Numbered from the stretch's first letter, positions 2,256 to 28,826 are shown. The stretch: DNA of 64,000 bases from an uncultured Candidatus Saccharibacteria bacterium (GCA_964389975.1 CAYMGJ010000001.1:22240-86239); one strand, 5' to 3'. Program-made: numbers and translations. Notes: generated by a model not told the origin, from the letters alone.

Positions 2256-3810
2256 TATTGCGTTCAGTTTTATTATCTATAGAACAGACCGAACAAATAA
2301 AATAAATAAATCATGGTTTTATTCATGCATTTCCTTTTCCCTGTGGGCACTTGGGTTGACCGGTGTGACTTTGTCTAAAATGGAAAGTTCAGCGATTTTT
2401 TGGCAGTATTTATTGGATGTGTCAGCAATATTTCTTCCTTTCTTCTATCTTGTCTTTATTTTTAATCTCTTGAAGTTAAAAAAGATATCTATAATCTATC
2501 TTTTTGCATTAATTGCATCCGGACTTGCTTTGTTCAGTTTTACTCCGCTATTTAAACACGGGGTAACAGTACTCTATGGTTTTTATTGGATTAAACCAGG
2601 TGAATATTATATAGTTTTCCCAGCATATTTTTTATCAGTTGCTGTAATAACTCTGGGGTTATTAATAAGGCAATATTTTATATATAAAAAAGATAGCTTA
2701 TTAAGATCTCAAATTAGGAATACTCTAATAGCAGGAATTATTGGCTATACTGGTGGGCTTACAAATTTTTTTCCACAATTATTTAGTATCTATCCCTATG
2801 GGAATTATCTAGTTATTCTTTATATAGTTTTCATGGTTTATGGGGTTTTAAAATATAAACTTCTTAGTACCAAGGTCATTTCTGCACAAATATTCTCTAC
2901 TGCTCTTATATTGGTATCTCTGTTTAATCTTTTAAAATCAGAGCAAATTAATGATTGGTTGTTAAATTTTTTGATCCTCCTTCTTATTTCAGTCTTCAGT
3001 TATTTTTTGATAAATAGTGTGAATGAAGAAGTAAGAGCCCGCGAAAAAATAGAAAAACTAGCAACTGATCTCAAGGTGGCAAATACACGTTTAGTCGAAC
3101 TTGATAAACAAAAATCTGAGTTCGTATCATTTGCAACCCATCAGCTTAGAGCTCCTCTTACTGCAATGAAGGGATACACCTCTCTTATGCTTGAAAACGA
3201 AATGGGGACTCTTTCAGCTGAGGTTCGCACTGCTATTTCTCGCATTTATGAATCAGCCAAGACTCTAACTTCTATAGTTGATGACTATCTCAATATTTCT
3301 CGTATTGAGCTCGGTACTATGAAATACGCTTTCTCGGTTCTCGATCTAAAAGTTATGGTTTCTAATGTTATCGGAGAACTTAAGCCTAATATTGAGAAAA
3401 GCGGTCTTGTTACATCTTTTTCAACATCTCCATCAGGAGAATCTGAACGATTTATGGTCCGAGCCGATCAAGACAAACTTAAACAGGTTATAGCTAATCT
3501 CATTGATAATTCAATTAAATACACTCCTCAAGGTTCTCTTAACATATCTCTCATTAAGGATACGGATAAGAGAATAATTACATTTAAGATAAAGGATACA
3601 GGGGTAGGTATCGCCCCTGAGGTTATGCCGAAACTTTTCTCAAAATTTGTTCGTGCTGATAATGCTAATAAGCAAAATATCTATGGAACAGGTCTTGGAC
3701 TCTTTGTGGCAAAAGAGATAGTACTGGCTCATCATGGAAAGATCTGGGCTGAGTCTGAGGGGGATGGAAAGGGTAGTTGTTTCTATGTTGAGTTAGAAAT
3801 GTCAGTATAG
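2212..3810 (+). CDS. membrane sensor histidine kinase (multi-TM N-terminus, HisKA + HATPase_c)
   Basis: H-box FVSFATHQLRAPLTAMKGY; G-box GTGLGLFVAKEIV; multiple N-terminal hydrophobic helices. Confidence 0.85.
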   Translation: MNLFSISSLILCLSSIAFSFIIYRTDRTNKINKSWFYSCISFSLWALGLTGVTLSKMESSAIFWQYLLDVSAIFLPFFYLVFIFNLLKLKKISIIYLFALIASGLALFSFTPLFKHGVTVLYGFYWIKPGEYYIVFPAYFLSVAVITLGLLIRQYFIYKKDSLLRSQIRNTLIAGIIGYTGGLTNFFPQLFSIYPYGNYLVILYIVFMVYGVLKYKLLSTKVISAQIFSTALILVSLFNLLKSEQINDWLLNFLILLLISVFSYFLINSVNEEVRAREKIEKLATDLKVANTRLVELDKQKSEFVSFATHQLRAPLTAMKGYTSLMLENEMGTLSAEVRTAISRIYESAKTLTSIVDDYLNISRIELGTMKYAFSVLDLKVMVSNVIGELKPNIEKSGLVTSFSTSPSGESERFMVRADQDKLKQVIANLIDNSIKYTPQGSLNISLIKDTDKRIITFKIKDTGVGIAPEVMPKLFSKFVRADNANKQNIYGTGLGLFVAKEIVLAHHGKIWAESEGDGKGSCFYVELEMSV

Positions 3811-6746: not shown

Positions 6747-6866
6747 AAGAGTCTCGGTATTGCACAATCTGCTTTGGCACGTTTTGAATCAGGACGTGGA
6801 AATCCAACTCTGTTATTTTTACAAAAGATCACCTCAGGTCTCGGACTCAAACTCACAGTCATCTAA
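6747..6866 (+). pseudogene. remnant of an XRE-family helix-turn-helix regulator (C-terminal half of HTH only, no start codon)
   Basis: In-frame translation KSLGIAQSALARFESGRGNPTLLFLQKITSGLGLKLTVI* matches HTH_XRE helix 3 and following; bounded upstream by TAA. Confidence 0.4.
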
Positions 6867-6881
6867 TTTGTCTTTGTAAAC

Positions 6882-7151
6882 TTGGTGTATAATAGAGGGA
6901 TGATGCGAAACTTTGAAATCATTTTAAAAATTGCCTTTCTTGCAGGATCTATTGTGTTTCTTTTTACAAAAGATTTTAATTCTGTTGGTTTTCTCATATT
7001 TCTCATTGTCTGTGCTGTACTTGGTTGTGTTCTTGTTGTTAACAAAGATTCCAGCTATCACTATCCTCAAACACCTCGTGATTTAGTAATACGAAAGATT
7101 GAGGGCATTCTTCTTGTTGTGTTCTCGATAATTACCTTTATCTATGCTTAA
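6882..7151 (+). CDS. small hypothetical membrane protein (89 aa, 2-3 TM)
   Basis: ORF track; strongly hydrophobic; sits between the two transketolase genes. Confidence 0.35.
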   Translation: MVYNRGMMRNFEIILKIAFLAGSIVFLFTKDFNSVGFLIFLIVCAVLGCVLVVNKDSSYHYPQTPRDLVIRKIEGILLVVFSIITFIYA

Positions 7152-8743: not shown

Positions 8744-10762
8744 ATGTCATTGTTTCAGATATCACAAGATATGGCACCTGCAGGTGATCAGCCAAAGGCT
8801 ATTAAAGGACTCACCGAAGGGCTCTCAAAGGGTTTGAAGAAACAAACTCTTTTTGGCGTTACAGGATCGGGTAAAACATTTACCATGGCAAATGTCATTG
8901 CACAGCATGGTAAACCAACTCTTGTGATCGCTCATAACAAAACTCTTGCTGCACAGCTTGCTCAAGAATATCGAGAGTTTTTTCCTCATAATGCTGTTCA
9001 CTATTTCGTCTCATATTATGACTACTATCAACCTGAAGCATATATGCCCGTCACGGATACGTATATAGAGAAGGAGGCAATGATTAATGAAGAAATTGAA
9101 CGTCTTCGCCATGCCTCAACCCAGGCTCTCCTTACAAGAAAAGATGTTATCATCGTTGCTTCAGTATCTTGTATTTATGGTCTTGGTTCTCCTGTTGAAT
9201 ATGAAAAAGTAAATTTAAAGCTTGGAAAGGGACTAGAAATCCCTCGTGCTGAACTGATTCGCAAGCTCATCGATATACATTTTGAACGAACAACAACTGA
9301 TCTAAGTGCTGGTCAGTTCAGAGCTCTTGGGAATATGATTGAAATTATGCCGGTTAATGAAAGAACAATCTATCGTATTGAGTACGAAGGTAGTGTCATT
9401 TCAGATATCATTGAACTTGATCCTGTTACCATGGCTGTGCGTACCACACATACTGTCATCTTCCTTTTTCCTGCAAAGCACTTCATTAGTACTGATGAGC
9501 AATCAAAGAAAGCGTTTGAGAGTATAAAGAAGGAATTGGAGGGACGATTAAAGGAATTGGAAAAGGCGGGTAAGAATCTTGAGGCTGAGCGTTTGAAACG
9601 TCGAGTGAAGTACGATCTCGCTCTCATTCGTGAAGTTGGGTATTGTAATGGTATTGAAAACTACTCACGTCATTTCTCTGGCAAGAAATCAGGAGAAGCA
9701 CCTGATACTCTTCTTTCATATTTCCCCCATAAGAAGGATGGCAGTCCTGATTTCCTTACCGTTATCGATGAATCTCATGTGTCCGTACCGCAATTGGGAG
9801 GTATGTTTGCTGGAGATGCATCACGTAAAGAGACTCTTGTAGAGTTTGGTTTTAGACTTCCTTCTGCAAAAGACAATCGACCATTGAAATTTGAAGAATT
9901 CGAAGAAAGGGTTGGACAAGTTATCTACACCACCGCTACACCAGGAAAGTTTGAGAAGGAGCATAGTGAAAATATTGTAGAACAGATCATTCGCCCTACA
10001 GGTCTCATTGATCCTGTCATTGAGGTACGACCTGTTGCGGAGAAGGGGACATATGTTGGTCAGATCTTTGACTTCATTGCTGAAGCTGAGAAAGTCATAC
10101 GCCAAGGCGATCGAGTTATCGCCACCACCCTTACCAAGAAAATGGCAGAAGATTTAAGTGAATTTCTTAAGGACAAGGGGATAAAGGCGGAATATTTGCA
10201 TAGTGATATTAAAACCATTGACCGTATTACCATCCTTACTGATTTTAGAAAGGGAAAATTTGATGTACTTGTAGGGGTTAATCTCCTACGAGAAGGACTT
10301 GATCTTCCTGAAGTTTCACTCATTGGGATTCTTGATGCAGACAAAGCTGGTTTTCTTCGTTCTGAAACCTCCCTCATTCAGATCATTGGACGTGCTGCAC
10401 GAAATATCAATGGACGTGTCATCCTCTATGCTGATGTTATGAATGATGCTCTTCGCTATGCGATGAGTGAGACAGAACGTCGTCGCAAGATTCAAATGGA
10501 TTACAATACCAAACATGGTATTACTCCAAAGACAATCATCAAGAAGATTCAAGATATTACCGATCAACTTAAAACCGATCATGATAAAGCAGTGGCAGAA
10601 TTGATGAGAATTGATGAAGACATGCTTAAGGTTAATCCAAAGAAACTCCTTAAAGACAAGGAACAACAGATGAATGAAGCTGTGAAGGTTCTTGATTTTG
10701 AAACTGCCGCTATTCTCCGTGATGAAATTACTGAAATCAAGAAGAGGGTAGACGTTGAATAG
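8744..10762 (+). CDS. uvrB: excinuclease ABC subunit B
   Basis: GSGKTFTMANVIAQ Walker A, helicase motifs, C-terminal UVR domain; 672 aa. Confidence 0.95.
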   Translation: MSLFQISQDMAPAGDQPKAIKGLTEGLSKGLKKQTLFGVTGSGKTFTMANVIAQHGKPTLVIAHNKTLAAQLAQEYREFFPHNAVHYFVSYYDYYQPEAYMPVTDTYIEKEAMINEEIERLRHASTQALLTRKDVIIVASVSCIYGLGSPVEYEKVNLKLGKGLEIPRAELIRKLIDIHFERTTTDLSAGQFRALGNMIEIMPVNERTIYRIEYEGSVISDIIELDPVTMAVRTTHTVIFLFPAKHFISTDEQSKKAFESIKKELEGRLKELEKAGKNLEAERLKRRVKYDLALIREVGYCNGIENYSRHFSGKKSGEAPDTLLSYFPHKKDGSPDFLTVIDESHVSVPQLGGMFAGDASRKETLVEFGFRLPSAKDNRPLKFEEFEERVGQVIYTTATPGKFEKEHSENIVEQIIRPTGLIDPVIEVRPVAEKGTYVGQIFDFIAEAEKVIRQGDRVIATTLTKKMAEDLSEFLKDKGIKAEYLHSDIKTIDRITILTDFRKGKFDVLVGVNLLREGLDLPEVSLIGILDADKAGFLRSETSLIQIIGRAARNINGRVILYADVMNDALRYAMSETERRRKIQMDYNTKHGITPKTIIKKIQDITDQLKTDHDKAVAELMRIDEDMLKVNPKKLLKDKEQQMNEAVKVLDFETAAILRDEITEIKKRVDVE

Positions 10763-16905: not shown

Positions 16906-16978
16906 GGGCCCGTAGCTCAGTTGGTAGAGCAATCGCTTTGCAAGCGAAAGGTCAGGAGTTCGAATCTCCTCGGGTCCA
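16906..16978 (+). tRNA. tRNA-Ala (anticodon UGC)
   Basis: Cloverleaf: GGGCCCG acceptor stem with G3:U70, D-arm GCUCAGUUGGUAGAGC, anticodon loop UUUGCAA, T-arm GGAGUUCGAAUCUCC; CCA not encoded. Confidence 0.9.
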
Positions 16979-23544: not shown

Positions 23545-23772
23545 ATGTTTCAAAGTTTTCTGTTAAAGACCATGCTCAAGAAGCAGATGAAAGGAGTTCC
23601 ACAAGAACAACAAGATCAGATTTTCGCTATGATTGAAAAGAATCCTGATTTTTTTATGAAAATCGCTCAAGAGGCACAGGAAAAGATAAAGGGAGGGATG
23701 CCGCAACAGCAAGCAATGATGGCTGTTATGCAGGCACATGAGAAAGAACTTCGTGAAGTGATGGGGAAATAG
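23545..23772 (+). CDS. small hypothetical protein (75 aa, Gln/Met-rich)
   Basis: ORF track. Confidence 0.35.
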   Translation: MFQSFLLKTMLKKQMKGVPQEQQDQIFAMIEKNPDFFMKIAQEAQEKIKGGMPQQQAMMAVMQAHEKELREVMGK

Positions 23773-23817
23773 GGGATTGACAGAGGAAGGTTCTCCCCAC
23801 TATACTTATCTCCAGTT

Positions 23818-24147
23818 ATGCTCGTCGTTAGATTGATGTGTTTGATGTATATCGGCGGTATCGCTGGTGAAGATCGGATTTCGTCTCGTTATGACGATAT
23901 CCACGCATGGGTATTTGCTCAAAGCGATGTCTATCGCTCGTATGGACCTCCACCAGATTCACTGTTTCTTAGAGTACCAGTCGAACAGGTTTTTCGTGTC
24001 ATGCATCCAGATGCATGTCCAGTTCGTTCGACACCCGTCATCGTTCCGTTTCAAGGGATTACACTCCCTCATCAATCATCTCAACAGATGATTCCGTATC
24101 GTTACCGCAGGTGTATCGCCCAAGACTGGGTGCCTCCTCCGGTATGA
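23818..24147 (+). CDS. hypothetical protein (109 aa) in GC-shifted segment; coding status uncertain
   Basis: Promoter-like TTGACA-17-TATACT at 23780-23812, strong terminator at 24188-24218, but no RBS and an overlapping second-frame ORF. Confidence 0.25.
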   Translation: MLVVRLMCLMYIGGIAGEDRISSRYDDIHAWVFAQSDVYRSYGPPPDSLFLRVPVEQVFRVMHPDACPVRSTPVIVPFQGITLPHQSSQQMIPYRYRRCIAQDWVPPPV

Positions 24148-24187
24148 AAGGTTTGCGTTTTTGTTTTTGGTTTTTTGCTTAAGGATA

Positions 24188-24218
24188 GCGGCTCTCCACC
24201 AGGGGGAGCCGCTTTTTC
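24188..24218 (+). terminator. rho-independent terminator
   Basis: agcggctctcc-accag-ggggagccgc followed by ttttt. Confidence 0.7.
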
Positions 24219-24268
24219 GTTCCATATGTAGTGTATACTTTATTACTAGAGGAAAGGAGGTGATACGT

Positions 24269-24502
24269 ATGAAAGATGATGAAGAAACAATGCTTGAACC
24301 CTATGTGGATTTCTTTGTTGAAATAGAAGGGGCATTGACTGCTCATCCATCGAAGGAAGAGATTGCTCGAAAGTGTCGAAGAATTATTCTCACAGGTGTC
24401 AAAGAAGATAAACATCCTTCAGGTCCAGCTATTCTCCAAAGAGTTCTTGCTCAACACAGACCATCTGTCCGTGATTCGCGACCAGTAAGGTTTGTCTCTT
24501 AG
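24269..24502 (+). CDS. small hypothetical protein (78 aa)
   Basis: GGAAAGGAGGTG RBS before ATG 24269; hairpin ccggtcacatacttgtggccgg downstream. Confidence 0.4.
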   Translation: MKDDEETMLEPYVDFFVEIEGALTAHPSKEEIARKCRRIILTGVKEDKHPSGPAILQRVLAQHRPSVRDSRPVRFVS

Positions 24503-24592
24503 TCATCATCAAGACTCCGGTCACATACTTGTGGCCGGGGTTCTTTGTACCCAATCTAGCCCCAAATCAACACGTATGCTACACTCTCTACC

Positions 24593-25690
24593 ATGTCACT
24601 ATCAATCGGAATTGTAGGTCTGCCAAATGTTGGTAAATCAACATTGTTTGTCGCCCTTACCAAAAAAAGTGTTCTCATTGCAAACTATCCCTTCGCTACC
24701 ATTGATCCTTCAGTGGGTGTTGTTCCTGTGCCTGATGAGCGTCTCCATACTCTCGCTGCATTCTCTCAGACACAGAAAACTGTGCCTGCAATCGTTGAAT
24801 TCGTTGATATTGCCGGTCTTGTAAAAGGTGCGTCTGATGGGGAGGGACTTGGTAATCAATTCCTCACTAATATCAGAGAAACAGATGCAATTGCTCATGT
24901 TGTTCGTATTTTCGAAGATGATAACATCATCCATGTTGATGGGAAGATACATCCGATAAAAGATATTGAGGTTATAAATCTCGAACTCATTCTTGCTGAT
25001 CTTCAGACAGTTACGAAGCGACTCTCGAATCTTCAAAAGGAAGTGAAAGCGGGAAAGAAGGAAGCACTTCTTGAATCCTCACTTCTTGAAAAGATTAAGG
25101 TTGCTCTTGAAGCAGGAAGATTAGCACAAACAGTAGACATGACTGATATGGAGAAACCATTTCTAAAGTCTATGCATCTCCTTACTGCTAAACCTATGAT
25201 GTATGTACTTAACAAGAAAGCAGGAGGAAAGAATCTTGATGAGGTTAATGATGAGAGGTATCAAGCACTCATCTCATTTTTCAATGAAAACAAAGCAAAG
25301 TGGGTTATCGTCGATGCTGGTATTGAACATGAACTTAAAGATCTTGAAGACAAAGACAAGAAAGAACTTCGAGAAGGACTTGGATCACAGGATGATGGTA
25401 TTGATAACTTGATACGTAAGGGATACGAACTCCTCAATCTCATCACCTATTTCACAACAGGGGAGAAAGAAACCCGTGCTTGGACTATTGGACGTGGTTG
25501 GACAGCACCAGAAGCTGGTACCGCTATTCACAATGACTTTAAAGACAAGTTCATCCGTGCAGAAGTAATTGAGTGGGATAAACTCATTGAAGCAGGATCA
25601 TTTGCTCAAGCTCGAGAGAAAGGACTTATACGAACAGAAGGGAAGGAATATATTGTAAAGGATGGTGATGTGATGGAGTTTAAGGTGTAG
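24593..25690 (+). CDS. ychF: ribosome-binding ATPase YchF (Obg-family GTPase)
   Basis: GIVGLPNVGKSTLF G1 motif, TGS-like C-terminus; 365 aa. Confidence 0.9.
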   Translation: MSLSIGIVGLPNVGKSTLFVALTKKSVLIANYPFATIDPSVGVVPVPDERLHTLAAFSQTQKTVPAIVEFVDIAGLVKGASDGEGLGNQFLTNIRETDAIAHVVRIFEDDNIIHVDGKIHPIKDIEVINLELILADLQTVTKRLSNLQKEVKAGKKEALLESSLLEKIKVALEAGRLAQTVDMTDMEKPFLKSMHLLTAKPMMYVLNKKAGGKNLDEVNDERYQALISFFNENKAKWVIVDAGIEHELKDLEDKDKKELREGLGSQDDGIDNLIRKGYELLNLITYFTTGEKETRAWTIGRGWTAPEAGTAIHNDFKDKFIRAEVIEWDKLIEAGSFAQAREKGLIRTEGKEYIVKDGDVMEFKV

Positions 25691-25777
25691 ACAAAAAGTT
25701 AGCCCGACAACTTTCGTTGCCGGGCCCTGATTCCGCCTCTAGGAGATCAGTGGGCGTAACCTCTTGAAGAGGGATGA

Positions 25778-25834
25778 TACCTTTACTTAAAGATTATCAC
25801 AGAAGATGGTGATGCGATAGAGTTTAAGATTTAG
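25778..25834 (+). pseudogene. duplicated fragment of ychF 3' end (C-terminal ~15 codons)
   Basis: YLYLKIITEDGDAIEFKI* parallels YchF C-terminus KEYIVKDGDVMEFKV*; ~26/30 nt identity over the last 30 nt. Confidence 0.5.
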
Positions 25835-26519
25835 GTAAAAGAAAAGGTCGCAATGCCACGGAAAGTATATTATCCGCAACATCCGACCCGGTGAGTTACA
25901 AGGCATTCGTCAGTACAAGCACTGCTTGATTTTTGACTCAGTCATCGGGCCAGGTATCTAATCCGACCTTTTGCAACTATGTTCATGATACCATGAAAAA
26001 GACTTAGGTCTTATAGGGCTCAAAATTCAAACACACATAGCAAATATACACAATATATATAAGATATAGTCAATACAGCACATCAAGCCCTTAACCATGG
26101 GCTACGATAGGAAATGGGGGTCTGTCAATAGTCCTGTGGATTATAAAAACATTGTCAAAAGGGGATAAAGGAGTACCATTTCTCCTTGGGTAAGCTTCAA
26201 TAATTAGTTCATTTTATGTTAGACCTCACTTTCAATGCGTTCATTGCAGTGGCCATATTTTTCGGGTTGTCAGGTCTGATATTCATTGGATATCGATCTT
26301 CCACTCGAATCATTTCGTGGTTTCTGCTTTCAGGTGGTTGGATGGCAGCACTTCTCCGTACTCTTGGTAATTTTTAACATCCCGGAAGTTCCCCGGCGAT
26401 GTAACAGGTCCCAGCTCATTGATCACACTCACGATTATGCGTTTCGTGATGGTGGGAGAGCTGGGACTCTTTTTTATATCTGGAAATATCTCCATTTCTG
26501 TTGTATGATGACAATCACT

Positions 26520-28826
26520 ATGAACCAATATGATCATATAAAAATTGAGAAGAAGTGGCAGAAACATTGGGAATCAAAGAAGGTAAACAAAGTAAAAGAG
26601 GATTCAAAGAAAAAGAAATTCTTTGCTCTCGTTGAATTTCCATATCCATCAGGATCAGGTCTTCATGTTGGTCATATTCGTAGCAATACAGCAATGGATA
26701 TCATTGTTCGTAAACGTCGTCGTGAGGGGTATAACGTGCTATACCCCATGGGTTGGGATGCATTTGGTCTTCCCACTGAAAACTATGCGATAAAGACAGG
26801 GATATCTCCTCATATAGTAACGAAACAAAATACTGATATATTTCGAAAGCAGTTAAAGTCTCTCGGTTTTTCTTTTGATTGGTCTCGAGAGATTGATACA
26901 ACTGATCCTGCATACTACAAATGGACTCAGTGGATATTTCTCCAGTTTCTCAAGAAAGGTTTGGCATACAAAAAGAAGATGAGTATCAATTGGTGTCCTA
27001 AAGATCTCATTGGTCTTGCTAATGAAGAGGTAATACAAGGTTGTTGTGAACGCTGTGGAACTCCTGTAGAGAAGAAGGAGAAGGAACAGTGGATGCTTGC
27101 CATCACAGAGTATGCCGATCGTCTTGATGGGGATCTCGATGATACAGATTTTCTAGAAAAAATTAAAATACAGCAAAGAAATTGGATAGGGAAAAGTGAG
27201 GGGGCTGAAATTGATTTCCCTGTAATTGGAGGTGAGGAAAAAATACGAGTATTTACAACTCGAATTGATACCATTCATGGTGTTACCTATGTTGTACTTG
27301 CCCCAGAACATCCTCTTGTTGAGAAGCTTATGCCACGTATTGAAAACAAGGAAGAGGTTCGTGCATATATTTCTCATATTCGTACAAAAACTGATATACA
27401 GAGAACTGATGCAACATCAGAGAAGACGGGTGTGGCTCTCAAGGGTATTATGGTTACAAACCTTGTTCAAGGGGAACATATTCCTGTGTGGATTGCTGAC
27501 TATGCTCTTCTTGATTATGGTACAGGGGCAGTTATGGCTGTACCTGCATATGATGAACGAGACAAGATGTTTGCGGAAAAGTATGGACTTCCTGTTCGTG
27601 ATGTCCCTCTTGAGAACAAAGAAGAGATGGTAAAGAAATATGGAACATCAGTTGTTAAGTACAAGCTTCGAGATTGGATATTCTCTCGTCAGAGATACTG
27701 GGGTGAGCCGATTCCTGTAGTGCACTGTGCTTCATGTGGTATTGTCCCCGTACCCGAGAAGAATCTCCCCGTAAAGCTCCCTAGGGTTAAGAATTATGCT
27801 CCAACAGAGACAGGAGAATCTCCTCTCTCACTTATCGATTCATGGGTTAACACCAAGTGTCCTCAGTGTAAGGGAAAGGCACGACGAGAAACAGATACCA
27901 TGCCTAATTGGGCAGGTTCAAGCTGGTACTATCTCCGCTATACCGATCCAAAAAACAAGAAAGCATTTGCATCGAAGAACAATCTTGAATATTGGACTCC
28001 TGTTGATTGGTACAATGGAGGGATGGAACATACAACACTTCATTTGTTGTATTCACGTTTCTGGCATAAGTTTTTGTTTGATATTGGACTTGTTCCAACT
28101 AAAGAACCATATCAGAAGAGAACTTCACATGGACTCATCCTTGCTCAAGGGGGAGAGAAGATGTCGAAGTCAAAGGGAAATGTTGTTAATCCTGATGAGA
28201 TTGTAAAAACTGTTGGTGCAGACACACTTCGTATTCATGAAATGTTTATGGGGCCATTTGATCAAGCTATCGCATGGGATATGGATAGTATTGCGGGATC
28301 ACGAAGATTCATTGAACGAATGTGGAAACTTCAAGAAAAGGTAAAGAGTGAAGTACCCCTGGATGAGAAACTTGAGACAGTACTTCACAAGACCATTCAG
28401 AAAGTATCCGATGACATTGAAGGTATGAGATTCAACACTGCAATCAGTGCAATGATGATTGCACTTAATGAATGTGAGTCTCGAGATTCTCTACGAAAAG
28501 AGCATTATGAGATTATGCTACAACTTCTCGCTCCATTTGCCCCTCATGTTACTGAAGAAATCTGGTCGAATCTTAAGAACAAGATTTCAATCCATCAAAC
28601 TCCTTGGCCTGTTCCTGATCCTTCTAAGATGATGAGTGCTACTACCACGATCGTAGTGCAGGTTAATAGCAAGGTTAAGGCACGATTTGAGGCGTCACGA
28701 GATATGTCTGAAGAAGAAATAACTTCCAAAGCTCGTATGCTTCCTGAAATCGAAAAAGCTCTTGCAGGTAAGACTGTCCTTAAAACCATTGTTGTTAAGG
28801 GTAAATTGGTCAATTTCGTGGCTTAA
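26520..28826 (+). CDS. leuS: leucine--tRNA ligase
   Basis: Motifs resembling class-I HIGH (HVGHIRS) and KMSKS (KMSKSKGN); LeuRS-specific insertion pattern. Start set at ATG 26520 (MNQYDHIKIEKKWQKHW); ORF-track upstream extension is non-coding. Confidence 0.9.
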   Translation: MNQYDHIKIEKKWQKHWESKKVNKVKEDSKKKKFFALVEFPYPSGSGLHVGHIRSNTAMDIIVRKRRREGYNVLYPMGWDAFGLPTENYAIKTGISPHIVTKQNTDIFRKQLKSLGFSFDWSREIDTTDPAYYKWTQWIFLQFLKKGLAYKKKMSINWCPKDLIGLANEEVIQGCCERCGTPVEKKEKEQWMLAITEYADRLDGDLDDTDFLEKIKIQQRNWIGKSEGAEIDFPVIGGEEKIRVFTTRIDTIHGVTYVVLAPEHPLVEKLMPRIENKEEVRAYISHIRTKTDIQRTDATSEKTGVALKGIMVTNLVQGEHIPVWIADYALLDYGTGAVMAVPAYDERDKMFAEKYGLPVRDVPLENKEEMVKKYGTSVVKYKLRDWIFSRQRYWGEPIPVVHCASCGIVPVPEKNLPVKLPRVKNYAPTETGESPLSLIDSWVNTKCPQCKGKARRETDTMPNWAGSSWYYLRYTDPKNKKAFASKNNLEYWTPVDWYNGGMEHTTLHLLYSRFWHKFLFDIGLVPTKEPYQKRTSHGLILAQGGEKMSKSKGNVVNPDEIVKTVGADTLRIHEMFMGPFDQAIAWDMDSIAGSRRFIERMWKLQEKVKSEVPLDEKLETVLHKTIQKVSDDIEGMRFNTAISAMMIALNECESRDSLRKEHYEIMLQLLAPFAPHVTEEIWSNLKNKISIHQTPWPVPDPSKMMSATTTIVVQVNSKVKARFEASRDMSEEEITSKARMLPEIEKALAGKTVLKTIVVKGKLVNFVA

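Follow-up and report, generated by a model that had tools for sequence, protein, structure and literature searches.

Gene content of the ychF–leuS interval

The locus lies within a 64,000-nucleotide stretch of DNA, referred to here as the window, and comprises two plus-strand genes separated by a long spacer. The upstream gene, ychF (24593–25690, plus strand), is a 365-aa ORF encoding the redox-regulated ATPase/GTPase YchF. The protein is 60–86% identical to YchF proteins of Patescibacteria (Paceibacteria/Taylorbacteria-like) MAGs, and leuS lies downstream of ychF in several of these. The downstream gene is leuS (26521–28826, plus strand). Its true start is ATG 26521, where the N-terminus MNQYDHIKIEKKWQKHW agrees with the LeuRS starts of L002 and L004 and with the form common to relatives (M..QYDHxKIEKKWQK.W); L-numbered labels denote the related genome loci and the metagenome or phage contigs compared with the window. 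The ORF extension of leuS from 26286, which the first-pass annotation had judged implausible, is indeed spurious. The spacer is 830 nt long (25691–26520), in agreement with the length of about 830 bp given earlier. Other descriptions in that annotation hold in part. Spacers in the window are roughly, as stated, mostly shorter than 120 bp, but several gaps of 400–540 bp occur, along with one of 1083 bp just upstream of ychF. The reported elevation of G+C content is marginal (0.417 versus 0.396 in the window) and applies only to 25691–25801 (0.468) and 26378–26520 (0.455). No ORF of 60 aa or more lies inside the spacer, as claimed, but a minus-strand ORF of 85 aa (26310–26567) overlaps the leuS start.

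A second gene-poor stretch occurs at 23773–24592 (820 nt), between a conserved 75-aa gene (23545–23772) and ychF. Its G+C content (0.455) is the highest locally, and the corresponding interval is only about 40–55 nt long in L005 and L015. ORFs of 109 and 113 aa in this stretch have no Pfam match and the stretch has no Rfam match; it may be another insertion.

The spacer begins with a 111-nt unit (25691–25801) that lies between two copies of the ychF end and contains three hairpins (25701–25726, 25727–25751 and 25755–25777). The first is the pairing agcccgacaac/gttgccgggc noted previously, which is present at 25701–25726; it is terminator-like on the minus strand, where it is accompanied by a T-run. 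The unit is 75% identical to the reverse strand of L084 (474–581), and the ychF 3′ coding DNA of the pair is 73% identical. L084 is a close relative that also shares the first ~150 nt of the spacer; the two genomes differ completely beyond the second ychF-like copy. The hairpins show compensatory changes between the window and L084, the only two sequences compared. The 111-nt unit probably represents the remains of an inserted element older than the divergence of these two genomes. An A-run followed by a G+C-rich, sequence-variable hairpin after the ychF stop is found in the window (25701–25726) and also in L002, L003, L084, L091 and L096. This post-ychF hairpin reads as a minus-strand intrinsic terminator, although the neighbouring genes are all on the plus strand.

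Beyond the second copy, 25841–26151 is non-coding DNA without a nucleotide or translated homologue in 112 related loci, without an Rfam match and without excess folding; folding across 25835–26215 is no better than in shuffled sequences (z −0.65 and −0.97). More generally, the spacer past its first ~150 nt has no homologue in any related locus examined, and outside L084 the matching DNA in the Patescibacteria loci is confined to the ychF-like ~33 nt. A promoter-like site on the plus strand (TTGTCA-16-TACCAT, 26152–26179; a consensus match only) precedes a predicted hydrophobic ORF of 53 aa with two likely membrane helices (26216–26377, plus strand). This orphan has no homologue among 5.8 billion proteins and no Pfam match, and is possibly the cargo of a decayed cassette. 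It is followed, 45 nt before leuS, by a long plus-strand hairpin (26408–26477) with a perfect 10-bp base (GTCCCAGCTC/GAGCTGGGAC) and then a T-run, which resembles an intrinsic terminator; its folding energy of −50.3 kcal/mol (z −4.96) is reached by 0/200 shuffles. Its probable role is that of a terminator shielding leuS from transcription that arises upstream. It could also serve as a leuS leader or attenuator, but neither a T-box nor any other Rfam family matches it. Together, 26152–26477 looks like a small self-contained promoter/ORF/terminator unit, and a further promoter-like site, again a consensus match only, lies directly ahead of leuS (26481–26509, plus strand).

The earlier proposal that the spacer might carry a structured non-coding RNA finds little support, since no Rfam family matches it and 25835–26215 folds like shuffled sequence; conserved hairpins are confined to its first 111 nt, as judged from two sequences. 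The Rfam 15 scan used gathering scores for the entire window and E-values up to 10 for 25500–26700; the best spacer matches have E > 1, with 12.8–17.4 bits against cut-offs of 50–100. The only match at gathering score in the window is tRNA-Ala (16906–16978), which is also the only product of a tRNA/tmRNA scan of the window. Pfam searches of the spacer and of neighbouring small ORFs gave no matches. A MITE or IS remnant was rejected because no terminal inverted repeats or transposon ends bracket the unit; the inverted pairs present are short, scattered and 75–90% complementary.

A repeated ychF terminus in the spacer

The segment 25805–25840 repeats 25661–25696, that is, the last 30 nt of ychF and 6 nt past its stop, with 30/36 identical positions. 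The second copy reads in frame as ..LKIITEDGDAIEFKI and a stop (EDGDAIEFKI, stop), and the previously reported re-encoded YchF-like C-terminus with 26/30 identical nucleotides is confirmed over the last 30 nt of the ORF. The repeat is highly significant: its local score of 24 compares with 9.5 ± 1.3 in 2000 dinucleotide shuffles of the spacer (z about 11; 0/2000 reach it), and the next-best match to the repeat anywhere in the 64-kb window is 25/36.

When extended to a full site, the in-frame copy (25658–25696, plus strand) covers the last 10 codons and the stop of ychF and reads GATGGTGATGTGATG-GAGTTTAAGG-TGTAG+ACAAAA; it is of host type (B-O-B′-like, in the notation explained below) and lacks an inverted right arm (5/11). 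The extra copy (25802–25840, plus strand) reads GAAGATGGTGATGCGATA-GAGTTTAAGA-TTTAG+GTAAAA, is of attR type (C-O-B′) and matches a profile of extra copies from other loci with an nhmmer E-value of 5e-9. It shares 44/49 positions with an extra copy in L011 (7731–7779) and 30/32 with a phage-borne site in L098 (1196–1227), which makes it closer to that phage site than to the end of its own ychF (30/36).

Other origins of such copies were rejected. Extra copies are not the C-termini of separate small genes, because the open frames upstream of them span only 9–49 codons and often lack a start. A minus-strand ORF of 39 aa overlies the copy in the window, and third-position variation fits the plus frame instead. 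Mismatches between the copies are, by eye, not adenine-specific, which is inconsistent with the template and variable repeats of a DGR.

Recurrence of the repeat in related loci

A direct repeat of the ychF end beside the gene recurs in at least 16 related loci, so the ychF-like sequence is not a private duplication of this genome. Extra copies occur downstream of ychF, on the same strand, in seven genome loci (L002, L003 with three copies, L004, L005, L011 with three copies, L015 and L029), and they precede leuS wherever the contig extends that far. Scanning metagenomes with a pattern specific to the extra copies yielded 17 more contigs, nine of which carry ychF with one or two extra copies downstream on the same strand (L082, L084, L086, L088, L090, L091, L092, L093 and L096).

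The extra copies have their own consensus, GAAGATGGTGGTGCGATAGAGTTTAAGATTTAG, which translates as EDG[GS][AV]IEFK[IV] and a stop, whereas host in-frame ends read KDGDVMEFKI and a stop. Identity between the two classes is 64% over the left half of the site and 88% over the right. Between genomes, extra copies are 82% conserved and host ends 87%. The pattern used for the metagenome scan is degenerate at third codon positions, so the coding-like variation of the extra copies is partly built in; the third-position excess is modest in the set that was not selected by the pattern (permutation p 0.027). This variation probably reflects elements that track synonymous variation in the ychF ends of their hosts.

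The DNA between copies is non-homologous from locus to locus and sometimes contains cargo genes, such as those for a Fic/DOC protein in L004 and DoxX in L002. The cleanest integrase-less cassette observed is that of L004 (7099–8265), a 1.2-kb Fic/DOC unit (with an N-terminal winged-helix domain) whose insertion point coincides precisely with the ychF stop. On either side of it stands a ~68-nt copy of the ychF end, and the two copies differ mostly by synonymous changes; the DNA after the in-frame copy is non-native, and that after the distal copy is of native type. This looks like a fresh attL/attR-like pair and a recent event.

Association with tyrosine integrases and phage genes

Seven of the pattern-selected contigs lack ychF and instead carry the site 350–450 nt downstream of a tyrosine integrase gene (PF00589, E about 1e-25), preceded by a conserved hairpin (GGGCTA..TAGCCC). 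These seven integrase copies are 90–97% identical to one another. Related integrases occur on phage-like contigs with the order int, site and then phage genes in L098, L099, L100 and L101, with identities of 92%, 69%, 69% and 74%, respectively; the distance from integrase to site reaches ~490 nt in L101. The phage genes include an exonuclease gene in L098 (2e-28), genes for RusA, a DnaA-C domain protein, a tRNA and the large terminase (PHROG 2, 2e-31) in L099, genes for SSB, ParB-N and a methylase in L100, and tail-fibre and portal-like genes upstream of int in L101, an IMG/VR contig. L099 is 37.8 kb long, which is the size class of related phage contigs, and the overall order on phage contigs is int, site, early genes and terminase. 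tRNA genes occur on integrase-bearing phage-like contigs at 10203–10275 in L099 and 519–590 in L100, and in the latter the tRNA-like sequence immediately precedes int. In L112, phage late genes (lysin-like) are followed by int, a small HTH gene and a site whose right side is of host type, an arrangement that fits the right end of a prophage.

The site accompanies a particular integrase clade. Contigs L102–L109, which were reached through an attP-proximal phage gene, have the same phage architecture, but their integrase is 35% identical and a ychF-like site is absent. In the related phage L104 (40.5 kb), the layout is the same, the integrase is different and the site is missing, so integrase and site behave as a module. 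On the 186-kb host contig L110, a 59%-identical integrase likewise lacks a ychF-like site, which limits the site specificity to the closer integrase clade; related integrases such as this one appear to use other targets. In this region of L110 (1–9600), the integrase lies beside a defence-type island (Fic, type I restriction-modification and an SMC-like ATPase); small genes and one for an aminoacyl-tRNA synthetase come next.

Among NCBIfam models the ychF-site integrase is nearest to XerA, XerD and XerC, and it falls far below every curated cut-off (128 versus 220; 117 versus 330); it has no recognisable arm-binding domain. In L097, L081 and L087, host-like genes lie upstream of the integrase (M16 peptidase, GNAT and CYTH), with no ychF within 4.6–8.4 kb. 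These elements are not obviously phages and some integrase carriers may be islands instead. A 333-aa gene upstream of the integrase in L097, L081, L087 and L089 is 42–84% identical between contigs, compared with 90–94% for the integrase, so that either the integrase is far more constrained than this neighbour or it moves independently of it.

A conserved non-coding unit of ~220 nt lies directly upstream of the ychF-site integrase gene and includes a TTGACA box of its own as well as a terminator hairpin ahead of the int start. It is present in L081 (~3085–3300), L087 (~1970–2185), L097 (~6850–7075) and, on the minus strand, L089 (1395–1650) and L085 (2030–2280), and partially in L100 (651–707). 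RNAalifold predicts 43 pairs, 10 of which are kept through two-sided changes, and no Rfam family matches. We regard this unit as a candidate structured RNA associated with a tyrosine recombinase.

Searches by tblastn of the 64-kb window, and of the DNA up to 6 kb from ychF in 80 genome loci, found no integrase homologue, so the element in the window has either decayed or lacked an integrase; this fits a remnant rather than an active element. A search for phage proteins near ychF in 97 ychF loci returned only host SSB matches, and two IUPAC pattern scans of IMG/VR gave 0 matches.

Site architecture and proposed origin of the spacer

All site copies were aligned on an invariant centre. In the phage form, the left arm is followed by GAGTTTAAGA, TATAA and an inverted copy of the left arm, as in L098 (GATGGTGGTGCGATA-GAGTTTAAGA-TATAACACCACCGTC) and L101 (GACGGCACCGCTATC-TAGTTTAAGA-TATAACGGTCCCGTC). 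An inverted arm with 9/11 matching positions at the same offset (+4) occurs in L098 and L101 only, and the arms co-vary between these two phages; each of the four phage-form sites has GATATAA at its end. No such arm is present in the in-frame and extra copies, which number more than 50 and score 4–7/11 at scattered offsets; on the right, most of them have the host-type sequence TTTAG, TTTAA or TCTAG and then an A-rich run. Dyad symmetry was found in phage-side copies only. This is the pattern expected of three site types: a putative attP (C-O-C′) on the phage, attB (B-O-B′) at the ychF end and attR (C-O-B′) in the extra copies. We infer that crossover takes place in or next to GAGTTTAAGA.

The segment 25802–25840 is most probably an attR-type attachment-site scar, produced when a mobile element integrated site-specifically into the 3′ end of ychF. 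The suggestion in the first-pass annotation of a junction duplication left by an insertion, possibly of a now decayed mobile element, gains support from a family of ~33-nt sites that occur both downstream of ychF in many Patescibacteria and beside integrases on phage contigs, where they resemble attP. In the proposed mechanism, temperate phages and other integrative elements of Patescibacteria would encode the Xer-like tyrosine recombinase and carry attP about 350–450 nt (up to ~490 in L101) downstream of int. This attP would consist of inverted arms around a centre (GAYGGTGGTGCGATA-GAGTTTAAGA-TATAACACCACCGTC), with a left arm and centre that mimic the last codons of ychF (..DGxxxEFK). Strand exchange between the shared centre and the ychF end (attB) would place the element directly after ychF and leave the gene intact. 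In the predicted attL, the ychF end would be joined to the right arm of the phage site (..GATGTGATGGAGTTTAAGATATAACACCACC), and the far junction would gain a second, element-derived ychF end followed by host-type sequence (TTTAG and an A-rich stretch). Repeated integrations and internal deletions could then produce short, copy-bounded units between ychF and leuS. In the window, one 111-nt unit and one scar would be left, with the integrase gone. We would guess that the rest of the spacer is older cargo (a promoter, the 53-aa orphan ORF and a strong terminator) followed by the promoter of leuS itself.

No single contig was found on which ychF and the host gene downstream (leuS in relatives) enclose attL, an intact prophage with int, and attR, so integration at ychF is deduced from the junction types. 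The in-frame copy in the window is followed by host-type TGTAG, an A-run and a hairpin rather than by a phage-type right arm, which implies a history more complicated than one insertion and one deletion. The same arrangement is common to the window and L084 and is therefore old.

Alternative explanations

The integrase-less units could be trans-mobilized mini-cassettes, in the manner of cis-mobilizable elements or an integron-like array, moved by a phage or host Xer-like recombinase. The gap between ychF and leuS would then be a gene-capture hotspot, which would extend the scar interpretation rather than exclude it. Arrays of up to four copies exist, at intervals of ~280–350 nt in L011 and as much as ~1200 nt in L004, and they also occur directly downstream of the integrase gene in L083 and L095. 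Some units look complete, with TTGACA after the preceding site, a gene (Fic/DOC in L004, DoxX in L002 and a 181-aa protein in L015) and a T-run terminator hairpin before the next site; extra copies are also more alike mutually than to the host copy, as attC sites are relative to attI. We nevertheless regard this explanation as unlikely. Single cassettes showed neither a circular form nor an empty-site polymorphism, many units are too short for a gene, including the 111-nt unit of the window, and several copies are degenerate (e.g., L003 7504 and L011 8042). The integrase also fails the integron-integrase models (TIGR02249, 52.5 bits versus a cut-off of 265; NF011946, 30 versus 435) and the extra copies have no inverted partner arm of the kind that forms attC palindromes, so an integron in the strict sense was rejected. 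An active integron-like cassette array is unsupported so far. A broader conjecture is that the gap downstream of ychF in Patescibacteria is an active accretion site, where phage Xer-like recombinases shuffle integrase-less mini-cassettes bounded by mimics of the ychF end, possibly helped by the structured RNA upstream of int. This would amount to independently evolved, integron-like gene capture in very small genomes and is speculative, with a distinctly low probability.

The ychF-proximal 150 nt (25691–25840) could alternatively be a functional RNA, either a ychF 3′-UTR/terminator module or a small RNA, in which ychF-like sequence is kept through pairing within the RNA. The 111-nt unit is as conserved with L084 (75%) as is ychF coding DNA (73%), its three hairpins keep their pairing through changed bases and its fold is slightly better than in shuffles (z −2.3); hairpin 1 is a minus-strand terminator, and an A-run and hairpin follow the ychF stop in many relatives. 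On the other hand, covariation in a unit known from two sequences is anecdotal, Rfam yields no match whatsoever and extra copies in other genomes have entirely different flanks. This explanation also leaves the integrase link and the dyad symmetry of phage copies unaccounted for, and we consider it quite improbable.

A tandem duplication of the ychF 3′ end that arose locally, through slippage or unequal crossing-over and without a mobile element, would suit copies that are only 144 nt apart and that both contain GGTGAT, which is absent from most other extra copies. It is made very improbable by the greater similarity of the copy to the L098 attP (30/32) and to L011 (44/49) than to its own gene (30/36), and by the presence of the same copy class, with its own consensus, in at least 16 other loci and beside integrase genes.

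In some single-Xer systems, dif adjoins xer. The site could by analogy be a chromosomal dif for a host Xer, with the arrays representing Xer-exploiting elements (IMEX), because the recombinase is Xer-like (best NCBIfam models XerA, XerD and XerC) and lacks an arm-binding domain, and the core resembles an arm, short centre and arm. This is barely credible given that all Xer equivalog cut-offs are missed widely (128 versus 220; 117 versus 330), that the gene resides on phage contigs with terminase and tail genes, that the site lies inside a coding sequence, and that GC skew rises monotonically across a locus with genes on one strand on both sides, which is therefore not a replication terminus.

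Implications

Interpretation of 25802–25840 as an attachment-site scar explains the odd 830-nt gap without a new gene or RNA. It also supplies a concrete attB/attP pair and an integrase clade for temperate phages and islands of Patescibacteria, in which lysogeny and mobile elements have been little mapped. The 33-nt motif offers an easy means of finding integrated elements, remnants and cargo in metagenome bins of the CPR (Candidate Phyla Radiation), and could tie phage contigs to Patescibacteria hosts.

Comparison with known systems

The mechanism is standard site-specific integration at the end of a conserved gene. Phages and islands that integrate into the 3′ end of conserved genes and supply a replacement end are textbook examples, as are tandem accretion and integrase-less remnants at such attachment sites. 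Known targets of tyrosine integrases include the ends of tRNA genes and the 3′ end of fda for ICESt1/ICESt3 of Streptococcus thermophilus. As in those systems, attP lies beside int and mimics the target end, the gene is left intact, direct repeats of the gene end mark the junctions and scars outlast the decayed element. Unlike those systems, integration here targets the final ~10 codons of patescibacterial ychF, the enzyme is small and Xer-like, without a recognisable arm-binding domain, and crossover would fall at the very end of the repeat, so that the displaced copy would be the element's version rather than the host's.

CIMEs and tandem accretion are known at ICE attachment sites of S. thermophilus. 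The units described here share with CIMEs the organization of integrase-less segments bounded by att copies in tandem at one site, but they are much smaller (110–1200 nt) and are only candidates for mobilization. Integron arrays are similar in having short units with a recurring site, in that the extra copies are mutually closer than to the primary site, and in the position of arrays beside a tyrosine recombinase gene (L083 and L095); they differ in that the recombinase here fails the IntI model and is phage-borne, and the extra copies lack attC-like dyad symmetry.

The neighbourhood of ychF is an integration site in other bacteria. In S. pneumoniae, prophage PPH005 and an ST320 element lie between the DUF951 gene/dnaN and ychF, at a 14–26-bp repeat in the promoter region upstream of ychF (PMC8637289, PMC6375853), and pipolins with large serine recombinases have been reported at ychF (bioRxiv 10.1101/2024.05.22.595293). 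Neither case involves the 3′ end of ychF or Patescibacteria. A full-text literature search found no report of the ychF 3′ end as attB or of this integrase clade in Patescibacteria. The dusA-specific integrases, which act at the 5′ end of dusA in Proteobacteria (PMC4482086), offer a further parallel: in both cases a dedicated clade is tied to one conserved protein-coding gene and the element restores the coding end, whereas the dusA enzymes target a 5′ end, in Proteobacteria, and belong to a different integrase family.
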